From: Shigella virus Moo19
DNA: 64,000 bases
Sequence record: MZ358387
Strand: one strand, 5' to 3'
A program made the position numbers and the translations under genes. The notes beneath the pieces were generated by a model. It saw only the letters and a list, made by a program, of their open reading frames with translations. It had not been told where the DNA came from and did no database searches. This document shows, piece by piece, positions 2,435-49,372 of the stretch (position 1 is the first letter of the stretch; the number at the start of each line of letters is the position of its first letter).

Positions 2435-2480
2435 GAGGTATATAATTACCCTCTATCTAATATTTTTGCATGTCAAAATG

Positions 2481-2593
2481 GTGATAGCTACTTGTGATAG
2501 CTGTGGTGTGGCAGGGGCTACACCCTTACACGTTAACTACCCCCCCGGTATGTTGACTCATGGGTGTACTACCCTACCCCACCTTACACGTTA
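2481..2593. repeat. Intergenic direct repeats: gtgatagct x2 (2481, 2494) and ccttacacgtta x2 (2524, 2582), plus repeated ctaccc runs
   Basis: Read directly from sequence. Confidence 0.6.
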
Positions 2594-2595
2594 CA

Positions 2596-2608
2596 CATGC
2601 TCCGCATG
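2596..2608 (+). promoter_or_regulatory. Tri-loop hairpin catgc-TCC-gcatg (bottom strand GC-GGA-GC); candidate N4-type vRNAP early promoter hairpin
   Basis: Perfect 5-bp stem, 3-nt loop; same core as hairpins at 3584 and 7442; upstream of ORF 2652. Confidence 0.35.
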
Positions 2609-2651
2609 GTATGGACATGTCGTCCTTATCATTAACTATTGGAGCTATACA

Positions 2652-2981: not shown

Positions 2982-3010
2982 GGAAGACTCCTTGGAGTCT
3001 TCCTGTTTTA
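2982..3010 (+). terminator. Rho-independent terminator (9-bp stem ggaagactc/gagtcttcc, loop cttg, then tgtttta)
   Basis: Read directly. Confidence 0.6.
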
Positions 3011-3209: not shown

Positions 3210-3276
3210 AAACCGCATCTAGAAACTGGGCTGTTCCACAGCTTACGGATACATTTCAACCAATTAGGAGGCATCC

Positions 3277-3492
3277 ATGAACGTAGAAAATATCCGTATA
3301 ATTGAGAATTGCTTTGGTGATAAACCAGTAGACCTCAGCAACGCAAGAAGGTCTACAGATGAAGAATACAGAGAGTTTTTATCCTTACTCGATGAATATC
3401 ATATGCAAGGGCATGTTGAATTACATGCCCATCTGCATAACTCAGGCTACTTCATGGATAAACTGGAAGCTGAGACAGGCTGTCCATTCTAA
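3277..3492 (+). CDS. Hypothetical protein (71 aa)
   Basis: ORF track; strong RBS aggagg upstream. Confidence 0.45.
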   Translation: MNVENIRIIENCFGDKPVDLSNARRSTDEEYREFLSLLDEYHMQGHVELHAHLHNSGYFMDKLEAETGCPF

Positions 3493-3583: not shown

Positions 3584-3600
3584 AAGACGCTCCGCGTCTT
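3584..3600 (+). promoter_or_regulatory. Tri-loop hairpin aagacgc-TCC-gcgtctt (7-bp stem); candidate vRNAP early promoter hairpin
   Basis: Perfect inverted repeat; GC-TCC-GC core shared with 2596 and 7442. Confidence 0.35.
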
Positions 3601-3705
3601 AAGGATGTATGAGTGCATCCAATCCTGTATGAAATCTTAGTCCTTTGTTTGGGTATGTTCACCGACGAGCGTACCCATAAATCACATTTATCTGGAGAGT
3701 ATAAA

Positions 3706-4089
3706 ATGTCTATTAAAACTTTTGGTCAAACTTTCGGTTCTGCTGTTGCTAACAAACCTGCTGCAACTGAACGTCCTAAAGCTAAATTCTGGCTGAACGT
3801 TGGCTATACAGCTAACGAAGGCACAGAAGAAGCTAAGTTCATCTCACTGCCTACTGGTATTCCACTGGATACTCAGGAGCATGTAAGCACTAAGTCCAGC
3901 AATGCTGACTTCCGTGCTATGCGTTGTGCTCAGAACGACCTGCTTGACCAGCTTCTGGCATTTGCAGAAGGTCTGGAACCAGGTGAAGAAGGTGTCATTC
4001 AACTTCAGGTTCAACTTCGTCGAGTCAAAGAAGAAGAAGCTGACATCCCAGCAGACGAGAATAAATATGCTCGTAAGCTGACTTTCTAA
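3706..4089 (+). CDS. Hypothetical early protein (127 aa)
   Basis: ORF track frame 3613-4089; ATG 3706 with ggagag RBS; followed by strong terminator. Confidence 0.5.
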
Positions 4090-7441: not shown

Positions 7442-7460
7442 AGCTGCTCCGCAGCTTTTG
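7442..7460 (+). promoter_or_regulatory. Tri-loop hairpin agctgc-TCC-gcagct followed by TTTT; candidate vRNAP promoter hairpin or short terminator, 30 nt upstream of RNAP II genes
   Basis: Perfect 6-bp stem, TCC loop; same GC-TCC-GC core as 2596 and 3584. Confidence 0.35.
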
Positions 7461-7488: not shown

Positions 7489-8307
7489 ATGTACTCATCT
7501 ATTGAACATCAGAAGCAACTGGAAACTCTGTTTAACAAGAATCAACTAATTCCTCGTATGAGGAAAGAGTTCGAGGACTCCGAAGAAATCCAATTCACTA
7601 AGTATTTTGAGCATATTGGCATCGACCCCAAACTGGGTATTGATGCAATGGTGCAAATTGCTCTGCATAAACGTGCTGACATTCCTACTATGGTTGGCTC
7701 ACTCATGAGTCACAGTCAGGATGCTCAGTACATAGCAGACACTCTGCTTAAGATGGCAGAGCACGACTGCTTTGACTTCGACCCAAGTATCGATAAGTTC
7801 ATCGTCATCTATGAAATCAGTGATGATGTACAACTGGAACTGGAAGCATTCCAGTATCCACTGCCTATCGTCAGTGAACCGAGAGAGGTTAAAGATAACC
7901 GTGGCTCAGGTTACTGGAATACCAAAGGCAGTATCATCCTCAAGAAGAACCACCATGAAATGGATGTGTGTCTCGACCACATTAACCGTATGAACAATCA
8001 ACGACTCAGCATCAACTGGGACGTTGCCAAGTTCGTCAAAAACTCATGGGCTAACCTGGATAAACCTAAAGAAGGGGAATCCCGTCAGGACTTTCAGAAG
8101 CGTGTACGTGCATTCGAGAAATACGACCGTACAGCAAAAGACGTTATGGAACTGGTGACTAAAGAAGGTAACAACTTCTCACTTGACCATAAGTATGACA
8201 AGCGTGGACGCACCTACTCACAGGGCTACCACATTAACTATCAAGGTACTAGCTGGAATAAAGCTGTTATCGAGTTCGCTGATAAGGAGTTGGTAAACGA
8301 TGAGTAG
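7489..8307 (+). CDS. Phage RNA polymerase II small subunit (N4 gp15-like)
   Basis: 272 aa; lies upstream of a T7-like RNAP C-terminal-half homolog; N4-like organisation; strong RBS aggag. Confidence 0.55.
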   Translation: MYSSIEHQKQLETLFNKNQLIPRMRKEFEDSEEIQFTKYFEHIGIDPKLGIDAMVQIALHKRADIPTMVGSLMSHSQDAQYIADTLLKMAEHDCFDFDPSIDKFIVIYEISDDVQLELEAFQYPLPIVSEPREVKDNRGSGYWNTKGSIILKKNHHEMDVCLDHINRMNNQRLSINWDVAKFVKNSWANLDKPKEGESRQDFQKRVRAFEKYDRTAKDVMELVTKEGNNFSLDHKYDKRGRTYSQGYHINYQGTSWNKAVIEFADKELVNDE

Positions 8308-8587: not shown

Positions 8588-8636
8588 TTAACCCATATGC
8601 GTGTTCCATACAGGAACCAGATGCAGGAGTAATAAA

Positions 8637-9854
8637 ATGCAAACTTTTACCGCTAAACAGTACCTGGCTATCGATATCGCTAACAACTTTGGTCTGGATA
8701 AGAAGACCTGGGATGAGCGTTTGGCCTGGTTCGATGAGAACAAAGACAACCTCATGAACCAGTTAGAAGCAGCAGAGGAACCTGCTCTGTATTATGCAGG
8801 CGTTAAAGCCTATGAAGACATGCTGGCTGGTAAGCCTATTGGTTATACCATTGCACTGGATGCTACTGCATCTGGTCTGCAATTACTGGCATGTCTGACT
8901 GGTGACCGTAAGGCTGCTCAGTTGTGTAACGTAGTGAACTACTATGGTAGCGAAGGCAAGGCTCGTCGTAGCGATGCCTACACCGTTATCTACCGTACCA
9001 TGCTGGAAGCCGTAGGTCAGTCTTCTCGTGTTAAACGTGATGACTGTAAGCAGGCTGTAATGACTGCATTCTATGGCTCAGAAGCTAAGCCTAAAGAAGT
9101 GTTCGGTGAAGGTATTCTGTTGAAGACCTTTGAACACGTAATGGGTATCGAAGCACCTGGCCCGTGGGAACTGAACAAGTTCTATCTGCAATGTGGTAAC
9201 CCGGATGCAACCTCATATTTATGGGTTCTGCCGGATAACTTCCATTGTCAGATTAAGGTAATGGTTGACGAAGTACAGACCATTAACTTTATGAACAAGC
9301 CATATGACATCATTCGCAAAGTACAGGGTACTGAAGAGAAGACTCGTATGCTCTCTGCTAATACCACTCACTCAATTGATGGAATGGTAGTGCGTGAGAT
9401 GCTGCGTCGTTGTAACTATGATGCTGACCTGATTACCTATGTAAAACAGCTTTGCTATGGCGTACAGGAATCAAATGTATTCCTGCCAGAAAACGCTGAA
9501 ATGGTGCATGAGTTATGGAACCACTATGAACGTAGTGGTTTCCTGTCCATGCGTATCTGCGATTATCTGGATGCAGGCTCCATCGCTCTGGTTGACCGTC
9601 AGGTCATCCTTGAGATGCTGGAGACTCTGCCTAAGAAGCCATTCAAAGTACTGACTGTACATGACTGCTTCCGTTGCCATCCTAATTATGGCAATGACCT
9701 GCGTCGTCAATACAATCAGATTCTGTCTGACATTGCTAAATCCAACCTGCTGTCATTCATTCTGTCTCAGGTACTGGGACAAGAGTTCACTGCTGGTAAG
9801 CTGGACAATGACATGTGGAAAGATGTCTTAGACGCTGAGTACGCATTAAGCTAA
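8637..9854 (+). CDS. Phage RNA polymerase II large subunit, T7-like single-subunit RNAP catalytic half (N4 gp16-like)
   Basis: Motifs DATASGLQ (motif A-like), KQAVMTAFYGS (motif B-like), TVHDCF (motif C-like); ATG 8637 with aggag RBS (track ORF starts 8601). Confidence 0.75.
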   Translation: MQTFTAKQYLAIDIANNFGLDKKTWDERLAWFDENKDNLMNQLEAAEEPALYYAGVKAYEDMLAGKPIGYTIALDATASGLQLLACLTGDRKAAQLCNVVNYYGSEGKARRSDAYTVIYRTMLEAVGQSSRVKRDDCKQAVMTAFYGSEAKPKEVFGEGILLKTFEHVMGIEAPGPWELNKFYLQCGNPDATSYLWVLPDNFHCQIKVMVDEVQTINFMNKPYDIIRKVQGTEEKTRMLSANTTHSIDGMVVREMLRRCNYDADLITYVKQLCYGVQESNVFLPENAEMVHELWNHYERSGFLSMRICDYLDAGSIALVDRQVILEMLETLPKKPFKVLTVHDCFRCHPNYGNDLRRQYNQILSDIAKSNLLSFILSQVLGQEFTAGKLDNDMWKDVLDAEYALS

Positions 9855-16688: not shown

Positions 16689-16708
16689 GTAGCAAGTGCT
16701 TACCTTAA

Positions 16709-16736
16709 TAGCCCTGCAATGCAGGGCTATTTGTGG
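16709..16736 (+). terminator. Rho-independent terminator (tagccctgc-aat-gcagggcta + ttt)
   Basis: Read directly. Confidence 0.6.
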
Positions 16737-37484: not shown

Positions 37485-37566
37485 GGGGGAGTAGTCAAGC
37501 GGTCGAAGACGGCAGACTGTAAATCTGTTATCCCACACGGTAGTTCGAATCTACCCTCCCCCACCA
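37485..37566 (+). tRNA. tRNA-Tyr (anticodon GTA), 10-nt variable region, CCA encoded
   Basis: Hand-folded cloverleaf: acceptor GGGGGAG/CTCCCCC, T-loop TTCGAAT, anticodon loop CTGTAAA. Confidence 0.65.
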
Positions 37567-37567
37567 C

Positions 37568-37642
37568 GGTAAGTTAGCTAATTGGTGAAGCGGCTGACTG
37601 TTAATCAGTGATAGAGTGGTTCGAGTCCACTACTTACCGCCA
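37568..37642 (+). tRNA. tRNA-Asn (anticodon GTT), CCA encoded
   Basis: Hand-folded: acceptor GGTAAGT/ACTTACC, T-loop TTCGAGT, anticodon loop CTGTTAA. Confidence 0.7.
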
Positions 37643-37647
37643 CATTA

Positions 37648-37724
37648 CGGAGTTTAGCTCAGTCTGGTAGAGCATCTGCTTTGGGAGCAGAGGGTCGTAG
37701 GTTCGAGTCCTGCAATTCCGACCA
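37648..37724 (+). tRNA. tRNA-Pro (anticodon TGG), CCA encoded
   Basis: Hand-folded: acceptor CGGAGTT/AATTCCG, D-arm GCTCAGTCTGGTAGAGC, anticodon TGG. Confidence 0.7.
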
Positions 37725-37730
37725 AACAAT

Positions 37731-37806
37731 TAGGGGTTAGTTCAGTTGGTAGAACATCGGACTTTGATTCCGAATGTCACAGGTTCGAATCCTGTACCCC
37801 TTGCCA
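37731..37806 (+). tRNA. tRNA-Gln (anticodon TTG), CCA encoded; position 1-72 is T-T (unpaired)
   Basis: Hand-folded: D-arm GTTCAGTTGGTAGAAC, anticodon loop CTTTGAT, T-loop TTCGAAT. Confidence 0.6.
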
Positions 37807-37808
37807 AA

Positions 37809-37884
37809 TGCTTCATAGCTTAGTAGGTAGAGCACACCCCTGATAAGGGTGAGGTCATTGGTTCAAATCCAATAACGGACGCCC
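37809..37884 (+). pseudogene. tRNA-Ile(GAT)-like element with non-complementary acceptor stem (possible pseudo-tRNA)
   Basis: D-arm, anticodon arm (CACCC-CTGATAA-GGGTG) and T-arm are canonical, but 5' TGCTTCA cannot pair with 3' AACGGAC. Confidence 0.4.
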
Positions 37885-38840: not shown

Positions 38841-38872
38841 AAAGCCCCTCTAATGAGGGGCTTTTTTATTTT
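38841..38872. terminator. Bidirectional terminator (aaagcccctc-taat-gaggggctt flanked by A-run and T-run) between convergent + and - transcription units
   Basis: Read directly; T/A tracts on both sides. Confidence 0.7.
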
Positions 38873-41800
38873 AGTTTACCAGATTCATCCAAGGGTTGAG
38901 GTTATGAGCACGTAAGCCCTGACCCAATCCGATAGAGTAATCCAGTCTACCATCAGCAGCAGCCGAGAACAGGTTATCCTGTAATGGCAGACCAACGTTA
39001 CCAAACATGGTAGGAGTTGGAGCCAGCATAGCCATAGCTGCATGAACAGGGTTATTACGAATCATGGACACTGCAACTTTAGTAGAACGAATCTTAAAGT
39101 TATAGAACCACATCAGACCCATGCTTTCCATGTAACCACGGAAACGACCCGGCAGACGGTCATAGTTAATGAACTCTTCGGTAACACGACCCAGAGCTTC
39201 TTCCTTACTCTTACCTTTACGCTTAGTCAGTTCATCATAGATGATTGCTTTAGCAATAAAGTCAGAGTACTCAACCGTCTTCTGGATACCCTGGAACAGA
39301 GCAGTATCCTTAGTGATAAGTGCATAACGACCAGCAGTTTGCAGCTTCTTAGGCAGCTTATCTGCTAAACGCTGCATGTACTCCTGTACCTTACCATCCG
39401 GGATTAACAGGTCATCACGAGAGATACCAGCATCAGCAATAGAAGAGAACTCACCAGCTTCCAGCAAAGGCCAGATACTCATACGCTTATAGCTATCATT
39501 GATGGACTGAATCTCAGCTTTCAGTTTACGAGCCTGGTTCGGATTAGTAGTTGCACGAAGTTCTGCTTCAGCATCAACCTGGCGAAGACGAGACTTCATA
39601 TACTGGTTAATCTCAGCAGTCTTCTGAGGGATACCTTTAGCAATATCCTTAACTGGAACACCACGGGCAACCATCTGATAGAGGTTAGCCAGGAAGTTCA
39701 CAGCAGGAACCACGAGAGACTTGACCACGATTAAGGTCTTAGCCTCACGTACAACCGTCTGAGTGATATTCTCACCCTGCATAAAGTATTTGTATGCACG
39801 GTTGCCAAATACGCCCAGCATTGCTTTCTTGAAGGTATCCAAAGTCTCAGGTGACCAACGAGAGTTACCAGTCCATACATCACCAACAGAAGCAGCACGA
39901 TAACCAAGTGCATCATTCAACATGTCACGACGTACCCACAGTTCACCATTACCAAACAGTGACTCAGCTTTCTGACGAGTTTCTGCATTCATCAGACGCA
40001 TAGCATCAGCAGTAACTGGGTCAAGTTTAGAACCAAGAAGGTTAATGTACTGGCTCTTATTGCTGGTAGAATCTGCCATGTCCTTCTCGTACATAGCGTG
40101 AAGATTTTCAATCAGAGCATCGTTAAACTTCTGGGCTTTAGCTTCTTCTACCTGACGACCTCGCCATACACCAATTGCTTTAGCAAGGTTATCCTCACCA
40201 GCAATGTGAGTCAGCATGTTAGGGTCAATAGAGTGCTCATAAGCAACCACACGACCATTGCCATCATAGATAGGCATCAGTGGTTCATTACCACGTTCAC
40301 CCTTCGCCAGAGCTTTGGTGATACGGTCAACGGAAGGCTTGTCAGTAATACGACCAGCAACCATTGTTCCCATTGTGAAGCCAGTACCAACATCCACACC
40401 ACCAGCAGTATTACGAACGTTCTGGAGAATACCCTGTGAGTATGGAGCACGAGCAGCAACCGGGCTGAAGTAGTAACCACGACTACGAGTACGTTCACCA
40501 GAGCTACCCTGATAACCAGCAATACGAGTGAATGACTTCTCACTCAGTTCGTTAAACTGGCTGTCTTCTGCAACAATCAGGTTAACACCCTGCTTAGTCT
40601 CAGAAGGAATGTAGCCTTTGTAGTGGTTCAAACGAGCACGGTCATCATTCTGTGCTTTACGTTTCTCTTCCACACGCTGGCCTACCAGATAGGAAGTGAC
40701 AAAGTCCATACCTTCGGTTTCAGTCTGAGCCAGGGAAGCTAATGCCTCACGGTCAGCCTGACTCATTGCTTCGATGGCATACAGAGTAATCAGCTTGTCT
40801 AAGGTGTCCACATCAACGGTAGATTTAACGCTGGTACGCTCACCTAACAGACGGGAGATTGCCTCAGCATTACGCAGCAGGTTGTTACCGACAGTACCAT
40901 TAATCATGTACTGAGCCAGTTGCTTAGACTTACGGTTAATCAAAGGCCAGTTACGTCCTGCCTGATTCTGGAGGTCAGCTTCCAGCTTATTAACCAGCTT
41001 ATCCATTTCTTTCTGTGAAGACAGCAGGTCACGAATTTCACCCAGACTCATGGTGTCACGCAGTACAGCAAGGTCAGTTTTACCCATACCAGTGTGCATA
41101 GCTTTCCACTCTGCATCAGTCAGCTTACGGCTGAACTTAGAAGCAATAGTGGTAGGCAGATGCTCACGGAATTGCTGACGGTCAGCCTGTACCTGAGAGC
41201 GAACAGCTTTAATCATGTCATAGACAGAAGCATTCGACTTAGTACGACCTACGATGTCATTAACCAGGTCATAGAAAGGTTGCCATGCTTTTCCCTGGTT
41301 CATTGCAGCCATAACACCCTGTGCAACTTTCTCACCGTTCTTCTCAGTAGCAATAGCAGCTACCAATTGAGCAGCATGAGCAGTTGCCTTAACCAGTGGG
41401 TTCTTAGCATTAGCAGCAACATCACGAGCAGTATCCAGTGTGGCATCAGCCAGACGTTCTACACCATCAACAATATATTGGTTAGCACGGTCAATCATAT
41501 TCCCAGTTGGGGTAGCAACAGAGTCATAGAAGGACTGAGCATTCAGGCTGGATTCCATAATAGTTTCTGCCAGAGCATCAATACCTTCCTGAACGTTAGT
41601 TGCTTTGGTATCACCAGCAACACGCTTGTTCAGGCTATCCATTGCAGCTACGCCAATGTTAGTCAGCATTGCATCAATAGTATTACCGGATGCTTTATCT
41701 GCTTTCATAACAGGCATGTCAGTCAGTACGTTACGTACCTCTTCGCTTACCATTGCCAGACCAACAAAGGTAGGCAGTAAGGAAGAACGACCCTGAGCAT

Positions 41801-44800
41801 CAAACTCAATATTGTTAGCACCCATCAACGTATCGAACTTCTGTTGAGCATAGTAACGGTCAGCAGGGTTAGTGCTGTTCGGGTCTGCCATGAAGTCTTC
41901 TACTTTCAGGTTCTTGGTAACGTGAGTGTAATACTCCTGAGCACGAGCCAGAGCAGCAGGATGAATTGCAGCCTCAGTTGCTAGTGCAGCAACAATGTTG
42001 GTGAACAGACGACGTTCTTGCATGTTCATAGTAAAACCATGCCCCTGAACATCACGAGTTACCTTAACTGCATTCACTACTGCGTCAGAGAATTTACCCT
42101 TACGCATATGTTGCTGTACCGGGTCATTACCCAGGTAGTTCGTAATGAGACGGTCAAAGGTTTGACCCAGTGAAGTAAGACGGTCATTGTTGCCATAAGC
42201 AGTGCTATGGAACAGGGTAGCCTCAGCAGTAACCGGAGCAACCGGAGGCTGTGAACGCATCACTACAGCAGAGTTAAACAGCAGACCGGAGAACATATCT
42301 TCACCGTAAGCAGGGGCTTTCTTACGACCAAAAATGAGGCGTTTAATTGCTTCATAAACATCTTTAACCATCCTGGTAAGAGCAGTGGTTTTCTTCTGCT
42401 TCTTAATCAGTTCATGGTTGGTTAAGCCCCATGCCATGTACTCATTCAGTGCAGCAGCTTTAGCCATTGCTGGGTCAATGAAACCGTTGGACAGATGACC
42501 ATTGATAGTATCCAGTGCATCAGCGTAAGCCTCACGCATAGCCGGAGTATCTTTGGATACATCCAGACTACGGAACTGTTCCATCAGATTCTCGATGTTC
42601 TGTACAGCTTCATTGGTCTGGCCTTGATAGTGGTCAAGTACAGTCTCAAAAGTAGAAGCATGAACCAGTTCATGAATCAAGGTTTCCATTGATGGGCTAA
42701 CCAGGTAGACAGTCTTATCTGCAAAGTTAGTCCAACCATAGATATTACCTGCATTTGCAGCTTCAATATCTTCTGGAGCAGGACGCTCTACGTTACGTTC
42801 CATTGCATACTGGTCAATCTGGTTCACGTTACCGTAAACAACCTTGTAGCCTTTAGCAGCCAGTGACTTCTGAATCTCATTCAGTACAGCAGCCTGTTCA
42901 ACAGGAAGGTTGGACTCTTTAGCCAGTTTGTTAATAGCAGTCTGAGACAGCACACGAACACCAGACTTCAGAGCACGGCCTACAGTATCAAACTTATTAG
43001 TATCGGCTACTGGAGTCTTCTCAGCTTTACGAGCCTCTTTACGAGCCTGCAATTCAGCATCGAATAGCTCATTCAGTTTTGCTACTTGCTGGTCAACAGT
43101 CAGACCATCCAGAGAGATATTACCGTTGTTCACATAAGGGGAACCAACAGCAGCCATCTGGTCAACAGTAGTCTGTACCTGGTTCATTACCTTGTGACGG
43201 ATATCGACACCCAGAGCAATGTTACGCAGGTTACGCTCAATAAGATTAACACCTGCTTTCTCAATCATATCAATCTTATACTGCCTGTCACCATCAACAC
43301 GACTGATATGAGAAAGTTGTTCAAAATCCAAAGCAGAACGGGCAATACTATCAATTGCTTCATCTGATAACTTATTGAAATCTACATTTTTTACAAACTT
43401 AGAGAAGGAGTCATACACATTCTTGATAGGGTTACCCTGCCATGAAGTGTATACAGCTTCGTTAGCCTTACGGCTTGCATCAGTGATGTCATTGATACCG
43501 ATGTTCATACCATCAAAGATTTTGAGAGTATTTTTCGGTGCACCTTTCATAATAGAAAGGGTCTGCATCATCATGCCGTCACCAGTACCAATCGTCATGA
43601 AAGGAATACCAGCAACACCAGCTTGTGACGGTGCATAGATGCTCATTGGCACACGCATACGGTCATCAAAGTTGGTAGCCAGAACCTGGTTAGCAACATC
43701 AGTATTCTCAGAACCAGCAATGTAGAAAGTCTGGGAACCAGTCTCAATCATTGGAGCTAAGTCAGACAGTGAAGCCTGAATATCGTTAAGCTCTTTCTGA
43801 GTTAAGAAGTCACCCTTCTTCCAGTTAGGGTCTTTTTCTTTTTCTGCCAGCTTCTCCTGGACACGTTGCTGGAACATGTCTTGCAGAACCAGAGACTGAA
43901 TCTGGGTAGCTTTCTGAAGCTGTTCAGTGGAGTGCATCAGCCCTTCACCAACAGTATTCTGAATACCCTGTCTCATTGGTTCAACGAAAAAGTGCAGCAT
44001 GTTCTCTTGCAGAGACTTCAGTTGCTCACCTTTGACAGTGAACTTCTGAGGGTCAATCTTGCCAGACATAGCAGTACCAGTGTCTTCAAGAGACAGTTTA
44101 CCTTTACGCATAACTGGAACAGTACCAGTCAATGCTTTCATGTCTTCAATGAAACGACCGAGCATAGCCTCAGCATCGGCCTCAGATGCTGCCTGCTTGC
44201 CGAACATTGCCATAGCCGGGGAAATGTCCGGGTTCTGTGCACGGGCTTGCAGAACGTCGCTGAAGCGTTCGTAGATGGCATCAGTAATTGCACTCACCAT
44301 CTTGCCTGCAATACCACGAGCACCGGAACCATAAATGGTAATGGTCAGTGGGTTCTTGGCAATGCCACGTTTCAGTTCGAGGTTGCCTTCTTCATTGATG
44401 TTATAGTCAGGAATGAACAAGTCCATCAGAGAGGACAGATGATTCATCTGAGTATTAACAGCCGGGTTATTGGCATAGGTATTTCGCAGGTTAGTCAGTG
44501 CAGCTTTCAGACCGTTAGTGGATGCTTCGTACAGGTCAACGCTATCGTCAATAGAACGATGTTCGTTCATCGTCTTACCAGCACGACCAAAGAATAGACC
44601 ACCCTTAGCAGTATTCTGTACCCATTCTTTGGTGAACTTACCACCAGTCATCAGCATCATTGCGTTAATCGGACCGTTGGTTACACCATCAGCCTCAACG
44701 TACAGTGGAGTGTTGAACTTAGACTTGTCTTCAGCATTCAGGTAACGGGCATACTCCATCAGAGCCATGAGAGCTACGAAGGATTTATCACCACCCAATG

Positions 44801-47800
44801 CAGTATTCAGAATCTCAACAGAGTTATCTGGCAGGTTCCCAGTTTTATCGAAATCAACCATCATATCGACAGCAGGTTTCAAATTGCCTTCCAGTGCAGC
44901 AGTCAGTTTTGCTGACATTGCCTCACGAGACATGTTGTGAACCTTGATGCCCAATGCCTGAGCCAAGCCAACCTGGAAATCAGAGAAGGTCTGTGAGTTT
45001 TCATTGGACAGGTCAATAGTAGAAAACGTAGGCAGAATAGCTTCACGAACCAGCTTACTGGACTGAGGATTATTCTTACCAAGCATCTGCATACGACCAA
45101 CACGAGTCATGTTGTAGGCATAGTGGATTGGAGTTTCCAGTCCGTTTTCCTGTGCACGAGTTTGCTCTACCACACTAAACAAGGAATCATAAGCCATAGC
45201 TACTGACAGGTTTTTACCTTCCAGTGACTTAGCAGTATTCACATTCAGCAGTTCAGGATTAAGCGTACCAGCACCCATCAATTCCAGAATCTTGTCACGA
45301 CCCATAGCCTCATAGAAGTTAACCATAGGTTCATGAATACGGAACTCAGTAGCCTGTTCTGCTTTCAGAGCAGCTTTCTGTTCCGGGGTATTCTTAACAG
45401 CAGGGTTGCGTAACTGAGTCTGAGCCACAGAAGGTACGTCGTCACCGAAGTACATTTTCTCTTCTGGTTCTACCAACACAGCTTCTTCAATTGCTGTAGG
45501 GAATTTATTGATAGGGTCATTGTCTGCCAGCTTATCAATGGTATACAGACCAACAGTCTTAGTGGAGTCTGGGTCAATTTCAGAGACATCTAGCATAGTC
45601 TCAGTAACTTCACCTGCTTCAATAAGAGCAGACAGAATCTCAGTTGCCATAGCAACAGGGATACCTTTGGTATAACCCAGTGGTGCATTAGGGTTACGGT
45701 CAAAGCCCCAGTAAGATTCAATTTTCTGAGCCAGTGAGTTAGTAGCTTCAACGAGAGTCTGAGCATTCTCAAACATCTCAACTACACCTTCCGGTAACAG
45801 AGCCTGTTCAATACCAGTAATAGCAGCCACGTCTTTAGCATCTTTAACGGCAGCATTCTGAGTAGCAGTCAGTCGCCATTGCAGACCAGCAAGTACGGCA
45901 GTTTCAAGCAGAGAATCGTTGAACTTAAAGCTATTGCCATCTGGTTCAACAATATTCAGCAGCTTACCACCAACCCAACGGTTAGCTTCAGTGCCCTCAG
46001 CAAAACGCTTACCTACGTTCTTGTTAGACAGGAACTTAGCCAGTCGGTCATTCAGAATGGATTTAATGTTTTCACCCGTGTTCATCAGGTCTTTATAACG
46101 ACCAGATACATCAGGGGTAAGAGCAGTATTCTCACTCTGAGTAAACGTTTCGAAACGTGCATTAGAAGACAGAGCCTGACCAATATCTTTCATTGGAGAC
46201 TCGGAACCAGTGGTACGAGACTTAGGTTCAGCAGGTAATGAGTAAGCAATCTTGAGGTAATTTTTTACCCCAGGCTGGCTGACATCAGTACTCCCAACCA
46301 AATCAGGATAAGCAGCGTCAATACCACTACGAGTGGATTCCACTTCATTAGTAGTTTCCTCAGTATTTTCAGTAACATCCTCGATGCTACCCTCATTGAT
46401 GAGGGTAGCATCCTTTGCCTTTTCGGATTGAGGCTTAGTTACTTTCTCTGGTTCTGCCTTAGACTCAGTAAAAGGAGCACTATTTTCTACCGTCGATTCC
46501 CTATTAGGAGTTACAGTAGGTGCAGCCTCCTGAGTTTGTGCAGGAGTTTCGTCAACTTGATTCACTGGTTCATTAGTCTGTTGGGATTGAGCAGCGTCAA
46601 GATTGCCCTGACGGAACTCTTTAACCACCTGGGCAGCAGGCTTGTCCAGACGTGAATCCAATGAGGTAACATTGATATGAGAAACGTTAAGCTCCGGGTA
46701 AGCCGTAGCAAGTGCATTAGCAATATCAGCTACGGTTTTGGCTTCCAGTCCTACTTGCTGGGCAAACTTAACCGACTTGGTATCGTAAGGATTAACACCG
46801 AGTCCAGTACGACTTCTTACCCATTCACGGGAAGGGGTGAGGGCTTGGTAATGGACAGACTTATTCTTATCCGCATTCCCAGAAATCAGATGTTCATTCA
46901 ACGCTCCGACCTTGTTCTGCATGTGCTGGGCGAACTGCATAAAGTCGCTCAAATAAGCGGAAGCCAAATCGAAGTTACCAGAGTTATACGCAGACCGAAT
47001 GCGTTTAGCATGTTGCAACGCAGAGTACTGGCCTTCATTAGAACGAGACTCGTCGGTTTTAATCTGTTTACCCACAATGTCTTGAGGCCGTAAACCAAGC
47101 TGTTCAGCTTTGGTATCAAACTCACGTGCTCCCTGTAATAGAGCAGCAGCGGATTGCAGGGCAGCACGTTGACGATTGTTCAACGTAATCTTGCCTTCAC
47201 TCGCATGTTTCAGAACCATGTTCACTGAATCAGCGTCCAGTACTTCCGGGCTTACGTCAGCAGCCATTGCTACGTTGTTAGCCTGATTCTGGTCTGCTAC
47301 ATCTTCGGTCACATTCAGATTACCTTGTTCAGCTTGTTCCTGAATCATGGAATGAATGGCACGGAATGCACGAAGTACCTTTGGAGTATTCTGGATGTTA
47401 GCCATCAGACCCGAATACTGGTCGAGCACAGCATTAGCAGGACTATCTTTAGGCAGATTGTTCAGTGCAGCAGGGTCACGGTTAACGAAGTCTTCCATCT
47501 GCATAACCATGTCGTACATATTGGCAGCAGCTTCCATCATCTGGTTCGGGTCTTCAGTAGTGTTAACTACATCAGCCAGTTTCTGGATTACCTGAACTCG
47601 GTCAGTGGAACCGTTAACAGCTTCCTGAACCACAGGAGAAGCATCAGCAAATTCTTCCGGGTTAATACGGGTAGCATTAACCAAATCACTTGCATACTGG
47701 TGTGCAGCAGCCTTCTCTTCAGGAGAGATGTCCATTGCTTCAACAGCATCAGCCATAGTTGCCTGAGCAGTATCTGCTTGTGCAGCAGCTTCCTGAGCAG

Positions 47801-49310
47801 CCTCAGCTACTTTAGCGTCAGCAACAGGAGAAGCCTCTTCATTGCGTCGTGCAACTTCTTCACCACGTTGAACCAGGATATTGGTAATAGGTGAAGCAGC
47901 TTTAGCTACGACATTACCAGCAGCGTTAAGACCAGCCAGGGTAGTACGCAGAGCAGGACCAGCAGCAGCACTTGCAGCTTTAACAGCAGAGCCAGGAGCT
48001 TGAGCAACTCCAGCAGAGCCGAAGCCATAGAGTGCACCCAGACCAGCTTGCTCACCCACACCTTTGAGTGTGTCACGGGTAGCATCAACGTTACTCCGAA
48101 TTGCACGGTTCTGTGCATACTGACCAGTACCAGACTGAATACCTTCTTCCACAGTCTCACGAAGCATGTTGGAACCAGCACCAGCAAGTGAACCTACTTT
48201 CAGTGGATTCAGTTCAAACTTGGATACCAGTGGACCCGTTGCAGCAGCAACCGGAGCAGTGATAGCAGCAGCATCAATACCTGTTTCAGAAGCAGTCTGA
48301 CGACGAGCTTCATCTGGAGAAAGACCATCTTTGATATGTTGCTGATAAACAGGAGACTTAGCAGCCAGTTCTTCATGAGACATTTTCATAATCTCAGAAG
48401 CAGTTTGCTGATAAGCACCACCAGCTTCCATTGTGCCAATAGCAATGGCAGCAGGAGCAACCTTAGAGGCAGCATTAACCAACTGTGCAGGACGATGGCC
48501 TAATTCAGCAGCAAGTGCAATTGCACGAGCAGCTTTTTCACCACCCATTACAGCACGACCTAATGCAGCAACCCCTTTAATAAGAGGACCACCCGTAAAC
48601 AGTGAGCCTACTCCTTCGCTCAATCCATCTGTTGCAGCCATACCAGTGTCAAGAGTGTTGGCAACAGAATCATAAGCGTCACGGCCAATACGAGAAAGAG
48701 AAGCGACCAAATCACTCTCGCCATCTTTAATATCCTGTTCGTATAAACGCTGGTTTTTCTGAGCAGATAGCTGGTTCTGGTTCTGAACTACTTTACGGGA
48801 AAGATTTAAAGCATCAGACTGAAGACCATGAACACCTTCATTCAACCAGTCCATGCCACTAGCTATGGTAGCACCAGCATTATCGTTGATAAGACCTGTT
48901 CCAAGAGAAGCAATGCCCCCAAGGGTATTAGCAACACCAAGACCAACACCAGAAAGAGAATCACCAATTGCTTCTGCATTCGTTCTCTCTCTGGATAAGT
49001 CCTGACGAACAGAATCGGCTGCATTAGCACGGCTATTAAGAATACGAAGACCTTCTTCGGTTCCATACTTAGCAATAAGTTCCATTGGGGAGGCTTGAGT
49101 AAAATCAGCCTGAAGTGAACCTGGTTCGAATGCACCAATGCCGAGATTACCTACCCGACCTGTTTGAAGGTTATAGGCAGTATCTGGGGTGAGTTGGAAA
49201 GGGTTATACCCTTCAGCAGCTTGCTTCTGGGAGGTTGCAGTAGAGACATCGACTTGCTTAGCATTAGTGATGCTGTCTGCGAAACCTGCCAGTCTGTCAA
49301 ATGTTGACAT
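38871..49310 (-). CDS. Virion-encapsidated giant RNA polymerase (N4 vRNAP gp50-like), ~3479 aa
   Basis: Size; T7-like motifs in central part (YVEADGVTNG; RGIAKNPLTITIYGSG; KIFDGMNIG), the two Asp 392 residues apart; ATG 49310 has aggaaa RBS (track start 49352 is GTG). Confidence 0.85.
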   Translation of the reverse strand: MSTFDRLAGFADSITNAKQVDVSTATSQKQAAEGYNPFQLTPDTAYNLQTGRVGNLGIGAFEPGSLQADFTQASPMELIAKYGTEEGLRILNSRANAADSVRQDLSRERTNAEAIGDSLSGVGLGVANTLGGIASLGTGLINDNAGATIASGMDWLNEGVHGLQSDALNLSRKVVQNQNQLSAQKNQRLYEQDIKDGESDLVASLSRIGRDAYDSVANTLDTGMAATDGLSEGVGSLFTGGPLIKGVAALGRAVMGGEKAARAIALAAELGHRPAQLVNAASKVAPAAIAIGTMEAGGAYQQTASEIMKMSHEELAAKSPVYQQHIKDGLSPDEARRQTASETGIDAAAITAPVAAATGPLVSKFELNPLKVGSLAGAGSNMLRETVEEGIQSGTGQYAQNRAIRSNVDATRDTLKGVGEQAGLGALYGFGSAGVAQAPGSAVKAASAAAGPALRTTLAGLNAAGNVVAKAASPITNILVQRGEEVARRNEEASPVADAKVAEAAQEAAAQADTAQATMADAVEAMDISPEEKAAAHQYASDLVNATRINPEEFADASPVVQEAVNGSTDRVQVIQKLADVVNTTEDPNQMMEAAANMYDMVMQMEDFVNRDPAALNNLPKDSPANAVLDQYSGLMANIQNTPKVLRAFRAIHSMIQEQAEQGNLNVTEDVADQNQANNVAMAADVSPEVLDADSVNMVLKHASEGKITLNNRQRAALQSAAALLQGAREFDTKAEQLGLRPQDIVGKQIKTDESRSNEGQYSALQHAKRIRSAYNSGNFDLASAYLSDFMQFAQHMQNKVGALNEHLISGNADKNKSVHYQALTPSREWVRSRTGLGVNPYDTKSVKFAQQVGLEAKTVADIANALATAYPELNVSHINVTSLDSRLDKPAAQVVKEFRQGNLDAAQSQQTNEPVNQVDETPAQTQEAAPTVTPNRESTVENSAPFTESKAEPEKVTKPQSEKAKDATLINEGSIEDVTENTEETTNEVESTRSGIDAAYPDLVGSTDVSQPGVKNYLKIAYSLPAEPKSRTTGSESPMKDIGQALSSNARFETFTQSENTALTPDVSGRYKDLMNTGENIKSILNDRLAKFLSNKNVGKRFAEGTEANRWVGGKLLNIVEPDGNSFKFNDSLLETAVLAGLQWRLTATQNAAVKDAKDVAAITGIEQALLPEGVVEMFENAQTLVEATNSLAQKIESYWGFDRNPNAPLGYTKGIPVAMATEILSALIEAGEVTETMLDVSEIDPDSTKTVGLYTIDKLADNDPINKFPTAIEEAVLVEPEEKMYFGDDVPSVAQTQLRNPAVKNTPEQKAALKAEQATEFRIHEPMVNFYEAMGRDKILELMGAGTLNPELLNVNTAKSLEGKNLSVAMAYDSLFSVVEQTRAQENGLETPIHYAYNMTRVGRMQMLGKNNPQSSKLVREAILPTFSTIDLSNENSQTFSDFQVGLAQALGIKVHNMSREAMSAKLTAALEGNLKPAVDMMVDFDKTGNLPDNSVEILNTALGGDKSFVALMALMEYARYLNAEDKSKFNTPLYVEADGVTNGPINAMMLMTGGKFTKEWVQNTAKGGLFFGRAGKTMNEHRSIDDSVDLYEASTNGLKAALTNLRNTYANNPAVNTQMNHLSSLMDLFIPDYNINEEGNLELKRGIAKNPLTITIYGSGARGIAGKMVSAITDAIYERFSDVLQARAQNPDISPAMAMFGKQAASEADAEAMLGRFIEDMKALTGTVPVMRKGKLSLEDTGTAMSGKIDPQKFTVKGEQLKSLQENMLHFFVEPMRQGIQNTVGEGLMHSTEQLQKATQIQSLVLQDMFQQRVQEKLAEKEKDPNWKKGDFLTQKELNDIQASLSDLAPMIETGSQTFYIAGSENTDVANQVLATNFDDRMRVPMSIYAPSQAGVAGIPFMTIGTGDGMMMQTLSIMKGAPKNTLKIFDGMNIGINDITDASRKANEAVYTSWQGNPIKNVYDSFSKFVKNVDFNKLSDEAIDSIARSALDFEQLSHISRVDGDRQYKIDMIEKAGVNLIERNLRNIALGVDIRHKVMNQVQTTVDQMAAVGSPYVNNGNISLDGLTVDQQVAKLNELFDAELQARKEARKAEKTPVADTNKFDTVGRALKSGVRVLSQTAINKLAKESNLPVEQAAVLNEIQKSLAAKGYKVVYGNVNQIDQYAMERNVERPAPEDIEAANAGNIYGWTNFADKTVYLVSPSMETLIHELVHASTFETVLDHYQGQTNEAVQNIENLMEQFRSLDVSKDTPAMREAYADALDTINGHLSNGFIDPAMAKAAALNEYMAWGLTNHELIKKQKKTTALTRMVKDVYEAIKRLIFGRKKAPAYGEDMFSGLLFNSAVVMRSQPPVAPVTAEATLFHSTAYGNNDRLTSLGQTFDRLITNYLGNDPVQQHMRKGKFSDAVVNAVKVTRDVQGHGFTMNMQERRLFTNIVAALATEAAIHPAALARAQEYYTHVTKNLKVEDFMADPNSTNPADRYYAQQKFDTLMGANNIEFDAQGRSSLLPTFVGLAMVSEEVRNVLTDMPVMKADKASGNTIDAMLTNIGVAAMDSLNKRVAGDTKATNVQEGIDALAETIMESSLNAQSFYDSVATPTGNMIDRANQYIVDGVERLADATLDTARDVAANAKNPLVKATAHAAQLVAAIATEKNGEKVAQGVMAAMNQGKAWQPFYDLVNDIVGRTKSNASVYDMIKAVRSQVQADRQQFREHLPTTIASKFSRKLTDAEWKAMHTGMGKTDLAVLRDTMSLGEIRDLLSSQKEMDKLVNKLEADLQNQAGRNWPLINRKSKQLAQYMINGTVGNNLLRNAEAISRLLGERTSVKSTVDVDTLDKLITLYAIEAMSQADREALASLAQTETEGMDFVTSYLVGQRVEEKRKAQNDDRARLNHYKGYIPSETKQGVNLIVAEDSQFNELSEKSFTRIAGYQGSSGERTRSRGYYFSPVAARAPYSQGILQNVRNTAGGVDVGTGFTMGTMVAGRITDKPSVDRITKALAKGERGNEPLMPIYDGNGRVVAYEHSIDPNMLTHIAGEDNLAKAIGVWRGRQVEEAKAQKFNDALIENLHAMYEKDMADSTSNKSQYINLLGSKLDPVTADAMRLMNAETRQKAESLFGNGELWVRRDMLNDALGYRAASVGDVWTGNSRWSPETLDTFKKAMLGVFGNRAYKYFMQGENITQTVVREAKTLIVVKSLVVPAVNFLANLYQMVARGVPVKDIAKGIPQKTAEINQYMKSRLRQVDAEAELRATTNPNQARKLKAEIQSINDSYKRMSIWPLLEAGEFSSIADAGISRDDLLIPDGKVQEYMQRLADKLPKKLQTAGRYALITKDTALFQGIQKTVEYSDFIAKAIIYDELTKRKGKSKEEALGRVTEEFINYDRLPGRFRGYMESMGLMWFYNFKIRSTKVAVSMIRNNPVHAAMAMLAPTPTMFGNVGLPLQDNLFSAAADGRLDYSIGLGQGLRAHNLNPWMNLVN

Positions 49311-49372
49311 AGCTTGTTTCCTGTTCAAACTTATATCTATAAGAGAACTCACTGTACATTAAGTGAGGGTAA

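Follow-up and report, generated by a model that had tools for sequence, protein, structure and literature searches.

Organization of the locus

The intergenic stretch at positions 2435–2651 was examined within the window, by which we mean the whole 64,000-nucleotide sequence of Shigella virus Moo19 (record MZ358387). It is bounded on one side by the stop codon of a 62-aa open reading frame (2434), to which a PHROG search assigned no family, and on the other by the start codon of gp1. The gp1 gene lies on the plus strand, from the ATG at 2652 to the stop at 2972, is preceded by the ribosome-binding site GGAG (2641–2644) and encodes a protein of 106 aa. The protein belongs to phrog_5020 (E 9.5e-43) and is orthologous to gp1 of N4 and gp1 of G7C. 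On the same strand, 3' of gp1, there is a terminator-like hairpin, GGAAGACTCC-TTGG-GGAGTCTTCC followed by TGTTTT, at 2982–3003.

To place the sequence, we compared the window with phage genomes using BLAST, and nucleotide matches were found to N4-like phages (Schitoviridae) only. G7C, pSb-1, IME11 and other members of Gamaleyavirus showed approximately 82–85% identity, N4 itself and the KP8-like phages of Klebsiella approximately 72–80%, and weak matches were seen to Xanthomonas phage RiverRider and Pseudomonas phage inbricus. The closest sequenced relatives are diverged from the phage of the window by about 15–18%. The similarity to relatives sets in abruptly at 2453–2460; the 2.4 kb upstream of this junction, which carries right-end accessory genes, had no nucleotide match to any relative in the phage collection. 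In G7C, the match is found at the right end of the record, where it precedes the annotated 1160-bp terminal repeat by 51 nt, and recurs at the left end. We also found that joining the right end of N4 to its left end reproduces, in an alignment, the permuted same-species assembly AlfredRasser, and the window therefore appears to be a permuted or collapsed representation as well. Judged by its sequence, the DNA of the window belongs to an N4-like phage (Schitoviridae, G7C/Gamaleyavirus-like) whose genome is given in permuted form, and positions 1 to ~2508 would be the right-end unique region.

Direct repeats in the intergenic stretch

The initial annotation had described 2440–2650 as a repeat-dense region, and a repeat finder located all of the repeats that it had listed. 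The nonamer gtgatagct is present at 2481–2489 and 2494–2502, ccttacacgtta at 2524–2535 and 2582–2593 (58 nt from start to start), and ctaccc at 2537–2542, 2569–2574 and 2574–2579. In 5000 dinucleotide shuffles of 2440–2650, P was 0.0028 for an exact direct repeat of at least 12 nt and 0.0084 for two distinct families of repeats of at least 9 nt. It is clear that the direct repeats of this region exceed chance.

Related phages had been suggested as a check on these repeats, and the outcome of the alignment was divided. The exact 9- and 12-nt repeats are conserved in part, and it is only the cores of the repeats that are kept in relatives. The second copy of gtgatagct is peculiar to the phage of the window; apart from this phage, G7C alone has GTTA extending the first copy of ccttacac.

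A probable early promoter hairpin upstream of gp1

The tri-loop hairpin that had been noticed at the end of the region is present in the sequence as catgc-TCC-gcatg. This hairpin, catgcTCCgcatg, occupies 2596–2608 of the plus strand, and the centre of its loop, 2602, is taken as position −11 of a promoter. Its sequence is CATGC-tcc-GCATG on the non-template strand and CATGC-GGA-GCATG on the template strand. The stem of 5 bp and the loop of 3 nt fall within the form of the promoter hairpins (5–7 bp stem, 3-nt loop), and the structure appears in the MFE fold of both strands. Its folding energy of −4.3 kcal/mol (z ~−1, standard DNA parameters) is weak and unremarkable; as a motif, the hairpin is far from random, as the counts given below show.

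Promoters of the N4 virion RNA polymerase (vRNAP) are conserved from −17 to +1 and contain a GC-rich heptamer centred at −11 and flanked by inverted repeats (PMC4496689); the rules for the heptamer and the template bases were drawn also from PMC3715699 and PMC13492108. In N4, R119 recognises template −11G, which also stacks on W129; K114 recognises −10G, D901 and R904 recognise −9C/−10G and −8G, and −10G makes a sheared pair with −12A (PMC4496689). With 2602 as −11, the template strand of the hairpin in the window has −12A, −11G, −10G, −9C and −8G, and it shares the heptamer GCTCCGC with N4 P2 and P3. The template strand of the window, 5'-CC ATAC CATGC GGA GCATG-3', can be set beside the published N4 P2 oligonucleotide, 5'-CC AAAA GAAGC GGA GCTTC-3' (PMC13492108).

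On the downstream side, the loop centre is followed at 11 and 12 nt by GG, as in N4 P1, P2 and P3 and in the two further hairpins of the window described below. Transcription is predicted to start at G2613, followed by G2614, and the 5' end of the gp1 mRNA would then carry the stem-loop GGAC-atgtc-GTCC (2613–2625, plus strand). The corresponding string TATGGACATGT.GTCC is invariant in the alignment of relatives, and the 4-bp stem-loop was also obtained in computed folds.

The stem varies among relatives in a manner that keeps it paired: CATGC/GCATG in the window, GTTGC/GCAAC in G7C, KP8 and N4, GATGC/GCATC in RiverRider and GACGC/GCGTC in inbricus. Compensatory changes occurred in four of the five pairs, and among 13 orthologues 100% of the cells were paired, a percentage that is inflated by the selection of six of the 13 sequences by a hairpin criterion. 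None of 500 shuffles reached the covariation score, and slid registers also fell well short of it. In addition, the record of KP8 labels the orthologous site 'early promoter'.

Three probable promoter hairpins and the virion RNA polymerase

We then looked for similar structures in the whole window. Hairpins with a stem of at least 5 bp and a GC-TCC-GC core occur three times in the 64 kb, all on the plus strand and in the early region, with 0.053 expected by chance; each of them is followed by GG at +11/+12 from its loop centre, a combination for which 0.003 are expected. They are located 0.1, 1.1 and 4.9 kb from the inferred genome end and precede gp1, gp2 and the RNAPII genes, respectively. 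The candidate P2, AAGACGC-tcc-GCGTCTT (3584–3600, plus strand), has its +1 at G3603 and stands before the gp2 homologue (3613–4089, phrog_4099); its template strand folds with z=−3.3. The candidate P3, AGCTGC-tcc-GCAGCT (7442–7456, plus strand), has its +1 at G7460 and stands before the RNAPII subunit genes (7489–8307 and 8601–9854). N4 P3 has almost the same stem core and almost the same downstream sequence, ttttGGT.ATTAAT. When N4 was scanned, its three mapped promoters, with loop centres at 96, 565 and 4554, had the form NNNGC-t(c/t)c-GCNNN, 4 nt, GG; the hairpins of the window, with loop centres at 2602, 3592 and 7449, have the same form. In N4, the first genes to be transcribed are gp1, gp2 and those of the RNAPII subunits (PMC13434306). 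One further candidate early promoter, besides P1, P2 and P3, was also seen; its start would be at G3247.

The window also encodes a polymerase of the type that reads such promoters. The virion RNA polymerase gene (38871–49352, minus strand; 3493 aa) matches phrog_2206 over its full length with 3943 bits, and its product is 68% identical to N4 gp50. The residues K114, R119, W129, K268, K849, K850, D901 and R904 are kept, as are the catalytic residues D559, K670, Y678 and D951, and K267 of the intercalating hairpin is T in the phage of the window.

The hairpin at 2596–2608 is very probably the orthologue of the N4 early promoter P1, which is read by the vRNAP, because it follows the sequence rules, its stem covaries and the genome-wide scan found no hairpins of this kind other than the three early ones. 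P1 would then drive gp1 (2652–2972).

The probable physical left end

In the N4-like relatives, gp1 lies near a physical end of the genome, and we asked where this end would fall in the window. According to alignment and BLAST coordinates, position 1 of KP8 aligns to 2508, the start of the G7C terminal repeat to 2509, position 1 of PD38 and PhAPEC7 to 2509, position 1 of N4 to 2510, and position 1 of St11Ph5 and ShWW44 to 2511; the annotated DTR start of Mimir124 aligns to ~2506. The ends of IME11 were mapped from the frequency of read starts, with reads beginning (T)GTGGCTGGGGCTAC, TGTGGCTGG and TGGCTGG (PMC3896407), and its high-frequency read starts align to 2507–2509 of the window. Seven deposited genome starts and the read-frequency termini of IME11 thus converge on 2507–2511, where the ends of all relatives except IME11 are taken as deposited. 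The ends of the relatives lie at the same position relative to gp1, as an N4-type terminal-repeat end would.

The virion DNA most likely begins at ~2507–2511, which would be the start of the direct terminal repeat and, in the concatemer, the terminase cut site. The window holds one copy of the terminal repeat, the length of which in relatives is 401 bp (IME11), 403 bp (Mimir124) or 1160 bp (G7C). The plus-strand segment 2435–2508, just 5' of the inferred cut, would be the last ~75 bp of the right-end unique sequence. It contains ATATTTTTGCAT (2460–2471), both copies of gtgatagct and CTGTGGTGT (2501–2509), and the last of these corresponds to the (C/T)AGTG(G)T that is located just ahead of the cut in relatives.

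It seems likely that 2435–2651 is an N4-like left genome end together with the P1 orthologue, present inside a permuted assembly, and we give this reading a probability of about 0.88. The proposal in the initial annotation that the stretch is not a spacer agrees with this result, as it holds a predicted promoter hairpin and an inferred genome end.

Conserved motifs around the end

Alignments of the relatives showed a series of short blocks in a conserved order on both sides of the end. The series begins with ATTTTT(C/G)AT (within 2460–2471), GTGATAGCTA, (C/T)AGTG(G)T at the cut and GGGGCTACACCC-TTACAC, and continues with TA-C7-GGTA (2538–2550), CCCTACCCC-ACC(T)TACAC (2572–2589), the hairpin and TATGGACATGT.GTCC. 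In the window, the terminal block GGGGCTACACCCTTACACGTTA with the first copy of ccttacacgtta (2524–2535) was placed by alignment at 2514–2535 of the plus strand; GGGGCTACA and CC(T)TACAC show little or no variation among Enquatrovirinae. The motif TA-C7-GGTA (plus strand) is found family-wide, and N4 has C10-TGTC at its position, without the GGTA half. The motif CCCTACCCC lies at 2572–2580 and forms part of CCCTACCCCACC (2572–2583), a family-wide string with one exact copy, which overlaps the second copy of ccttacacgtta, so that the two together span 2572–2593 of the plus strand. ATTTTT(C/G)AT, TA-C7-GGTA and CCCTACCCC each occur once in the window. The pair TA-C7-GGTA and CCCTACCCC is also present in RiverRider (Xanthomonas) and inbricus (Pseudomonas), in phages like LIT1 and PEV2, and in many uncultivated N4-like contigs of IMG/VR.

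The spacing of the motifs follows the end. Starting from ATTTTTSAT, there are ~35 nt to xAGTGT at the cut, then 30–36 nt of A/C-rich sequence to TA-C7-GGTA and ~25 nt to CCCTACCCC. The C-run starts 30–36 nt from the physical end in G7C, KP8, RiverRider, LIT1, PEV2 and UViG_2974664081, and ~32 nt from the end of N4. The distance from the C-rich motifs to the hairpin depends on the lineage (~15–65 nt), whereas CCCTACCCCACC stays at much the same distance from the C-run and from the end. The motifs appear to belong to the end and not to the promoter, because they are placed relative to the end, are single-copy and are absent from P2 and P3. They also seem to be unneeded for promoter recognition, since P2 and P3 do without them.

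Several other readings were tried and rejected. The C-rich motifs cannot be upstream elements of all vRNAP promoters, as they are single-copy and absent from P2 and P3. ATATTTTTGCAT was considered as a recurring middle/late promoter; it is single-copy, with three loose matches against 5.8 expected. The left end is also not the sole nucleotide-conserved region shared with distant relatives, as core genes match too. Its conservation is notable for non-coding DNA.

The end-proximal motifs would most likely serve recognition and cleavage by the terminase or holding of the DNA end. A search of the literature, using the motif strings and papers on the N4 origin and ends, found no description or function of them. 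We tentatively propose, at somewhat less than even odds, that the set of motifs, ~130 bp straddling the end, is an undescribed cis-acting terminus signal shared across Schitoviridae. Such a signal could be the recognition and cleavage site of a terminase without a known small subunit. It could also hold the first-injected end so that gyrase supercoils it and P1 extrudes; a linear end must be restrained for supercoiling by gyrase.

Additionally, IMG/VR was scanned with the motif pattern. The scan gave 63 loci, of which a rough estimate puts tens down to chance, and loci were used only when accompanied by a gp2 homologue, the hairpin or a position at a contig end. Four related contigs that are not N4-like carry the same bipartite motif 10–25 nt from the start of the contig. 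In one of these unrelated phage contigs (L049), the motif lies ~50 nt upstream of a 180-aa ORF, which is followed by the large terminase, portal and head genes; the terminase of this contig shares its PHROG with gp68 of G7C, to which it is 21% identical (E 1e-5). The position of the motif upstream of these terminase genes hints at a packaging signal common beyond the family, and we regard this as a lead only.

Alternative explanations

The stretch could also be a replication origin, with the repeats acting as iterons, or replication could be primed at the end by fold-back of an exposed 3' strand. In vitro, N4 replication starts at the genome ends, and the element in the window is at the genome end, single-copy and provided with conserved repeats. 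There is also an inverted repeat near the end, TACACCC (2519–2525) and GGGTGTA (2562–2568); as GGCTACACC...GGTGTAGCC it is shared by N4 and many genomes of Gamaleyavirus, and its arms are paired in the computed fold. However, there are two copies per repeat and no tandem array, whereas an iteron origin is expected to have at least three regularly spaced iterons. An AT-rich unwinding element was not found, the DNA between the repeats being C-rich, and there is no adjacent initiator gene. The inverted repeat, which we had considered as the key feature of the end, is present in Enquatrovirinae but missing from several lineages of Schitoviridae in which the C-rich motifs are retained (L033 and L036), and the fold of the region is no more stable than those of shuffles (z −0.7 to −1.05). 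No open-access paper was found that places an origin here. We consider an origin or end-priming improbable.

Far less likely still is a host sigma-70 promoter with an operator cluster, in which ttgact would be the −35 element and the repeats would be sites for early regulators of the phage. The hexamer exists, at 2553–2558, one base away from where it had been placed, and GGTATGTTGAC is kept within Gamaleyavirus. It is absent, however, in N4 and KP8, and a consensus scan found no −35/−10 pair with a spacing of 16–18 nt that uses it. The sole match of the scan in the region is a weak one, TTATCA/TACAAT at 2626–2653, and the number of matches was below that expected from shuffles. Moreover, early transcription of N4 is independent of the host RNA polymerase (PMC4496689). 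The description of ttgact as sigma70-like is thus not borne out. As for operators, the excess of direct repeats over chance would fit them, but the exact repeats are conserved only in part. In the earlier picture of a promoter/operator cluster, the promoter survives, with the tri-loop hairpin as its core, and for operators no evidence was found.

Least credible is that the stretch acts as a structured non-coding RNA, an N-terminal extension of gp1 or a small ORF and not at the level of DNA: the gp1 frame is indeed open back to TTG 2382, a 31-aa ORF lies at 2560–2655 and the small conserved stem-loop stands at the predicted 5' end of the transcript, but no Rfam family reaches the gathering score near the region (the tRNAs at 37.5–37.9 kb are the sole Rfam matches within the window), ARAGORN found no tRNA there, folds of 2509–2652 on either strand were no more stable than shuffles, and conserved blocks with freely varying spacers are unlike a codon pattern. 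The extension of gp1 to TTG 2382 is doubtful because it would cross the physical genome end, which would interrupt any ORF crossing 2509, and because relatives carry 1- and 4-nt indels in the region that break the frame. The region between the stop at 2434 and the ATG at 2652 can accordingly still be called gene-free.

Implications and proposed early-infection mechanism

The N4-type combination of a genome end and P1 is already well known, and specialists would expect it here. For the annotation of the phage, the reading of 2435–2651 as a left end with P1 would supply the true start of the genome, reveal the record as permuted with a collapsed terminal repeat, and identify three early promoters. 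It would also add a new natural variant of the P1 hairpin, in which the outer stem pairs are swapped; this variant conforms to the rule that in the loop and the inner stem the sequence is read by the polymerase, and in the outer stem only the shape. Phages of Escherichia, Klebsiella, Xanthomonas and Pseudomonas share the DNA from the end to P1, which is about as well conserved as core genes. The end-proximal motifs offer defined targets for studying how the terminase of N4-like phages locates and cuts the DNA ends and how a free linear end is supercoiled.

Promoters of the N4 vRNAP class depend on negative supercoiling by gyrase and on host SSB, and rifampicin does not inhibit them. By analogy with N4, early infection could proceed as follows. 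Host gyrase would supercoil the injected end negatively, and the inverted repeat would then extrude. Host SSB would melt the hairpin of the non-template strand, while the template hairpin CATGC-GGA-GCATG would persist and would be bound by the injected vRNAP through the residues that contact −11G, −10G, −9C and −8G. Transcription would start at the GG at 2613 to give the gp1 mRNA, and it may help to draw the genome into the cell.

Comparison with known systems

The closest parallel to the P1 of the window is P1 of N4 itself. Both precede gp1 and are ~100 bp away from the left end. In both, a stem of 5 bp carries a loop of 3 nt, the GC-rich heptamer is centred at −11, and a 4-nt spacer, GG at +1/+2 and the downstream TATGGACATGT.GTCC follow. 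They differ in the loop, which is TTC (template GAA) in N4 P1 and TCC (template GGA) in the window, as in N4 P2 and P3, and in the two outer pairs of the stem, which are swapped (CA..TG in the window, GT..AC in N4). The N4 polymerase has the same contact residues as that of the window, except for K267, which is T in the latter. As far as the sequence can tell, P1 of the window appears to share every testable defining feature of the N4 vRNAP promoter class.

Similarly, the terminal repeats of N4, G7C, IME11 and KP8 start, like that of the window, with (T)GTGGC(A/T)GGGGCTACACCC, followed by the same ordered motifs and then by gp1. The short repeat arrays in the terminal repeat of T7, and pac/cos sites in further tailed phages, can also be compared with the end in the window, where short C-rich or A/C-rich motifs are repeated near a fixed end of a terminal-repeat podovirus, lie at a single locus and are conserved within the family. 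The T7 repeats have no sequence similarity to the motifs described here. We know of no small terminase subunit in N4-like phages, the group in which these motifs keep their distance to the end from lineage to lineage.

Sequences flanking the genome end

Four motifs lie at 2460-2583 in the window, around the inferred left end of the virion DNA and 5' of the early promoter P1: ATTTTTSAT, xAGTGT at the cut itself, TA-C7-GGTA and CCCTACCCC. Each occurs in a single copy. They are kept in Schitoviridae of Escherichia, Klebsiella, Xanthomonas and Pseudomonas, where their placement is set relative to the genome end; the loci from other phage genomes and contigs that carry them include L017, L018, L027, L033, L036, L040, L042, L047 and L055, among others. 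No described function for this motif set was found in the literature.

A bipartite motif, CCCCCCGGTA-N12-CCTACCCC, was also present in a group of contigs outside the N4-like phages (L049, 11-40; L034, 26-55; L019, 973-1002; L022, 5364-5393), and in 2 of these four it stands at the contig start. The L049 copy is located shortly 5' of a 180-aa ORF and the genes for the large terminase, portal and head, and this terminase belongs to phrog_38, the same PHROG as the N4-like gp68. The motif may be a packaging signal held in common, or its occurrence in these contigs may be a coincidence.

On the 5' side of the junction, the right-end accessory block (1-2434) contains seven small ORFs on the + strand; in a BLAST search of the phage genome collection, none of them matched a phage at the nucleotide level. 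The ORF at 1923-2210 was assigned to phrog_16338, and PHROG assignment gave no family match for the last one, 2246-2434. Elsewhere in the window, four clustered tRNA genes (Tyr, Asn, Pro and Gln) were seen at 37485-37873, and a fifth, truncated tRNA-like match at 37816-37873 was picked up by Rfam only.

Hairpins in the early region and elsewhere

Alignment with relatives revealed a stem-loop, GGAC-atgt(c/t)-GTCC (2613-2625), that is invariant from N4 through KP8 and the G7C-like phages and lies where the gp1 mRNA is predicted to begin. It could have an effect on transcript stability or on the initially transcribed sequence.

Four early promoters, P1 to P4, are given for N4 in a 2026 paper (PMC13492108). 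In the window, a fourth promoter-type hairpin, GCTGT-tcc-ACAGC, was found on the + strand at 3230-3242, in an intergenic gap 5' of a 71-aa ORF (3277-3492), and is followed by ttac and then GG at 3247-3248. Its loop is closed by T:A in place of C:G, so that the template strand carries -9T. This hairpin could be a weak additional early promoter. A hairpin scan showed that, of all the window's hairpins with 3-nt loops, the one at 16707-16731 (AATAGCCCTGC-aat-GCAGGGCTATT) has the longest stem, a perfect one of 11 bp.

The P1 hairpin of the relative PD205 has a 27-nt insertion (ACACATGCTTGACTCACTTCGTTCGTCAGCGATGCTCCGCATG) within its 5' arm region, orthologous to 2594-2600 of the window, and the stem that is left, GATGC/GCATG, contains a mismatch; this may be an assembly error, or P1 may be damaged in this phage. 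G7C has an extra hairpin, AACGC-tcc-GCGTT (loop centre 509), directly 3' of gp1, and this hairpin is followed by gttt-CG and not by GG. The equivalent place in the window is occupied by a terminator-like hairpin (2982-3003).
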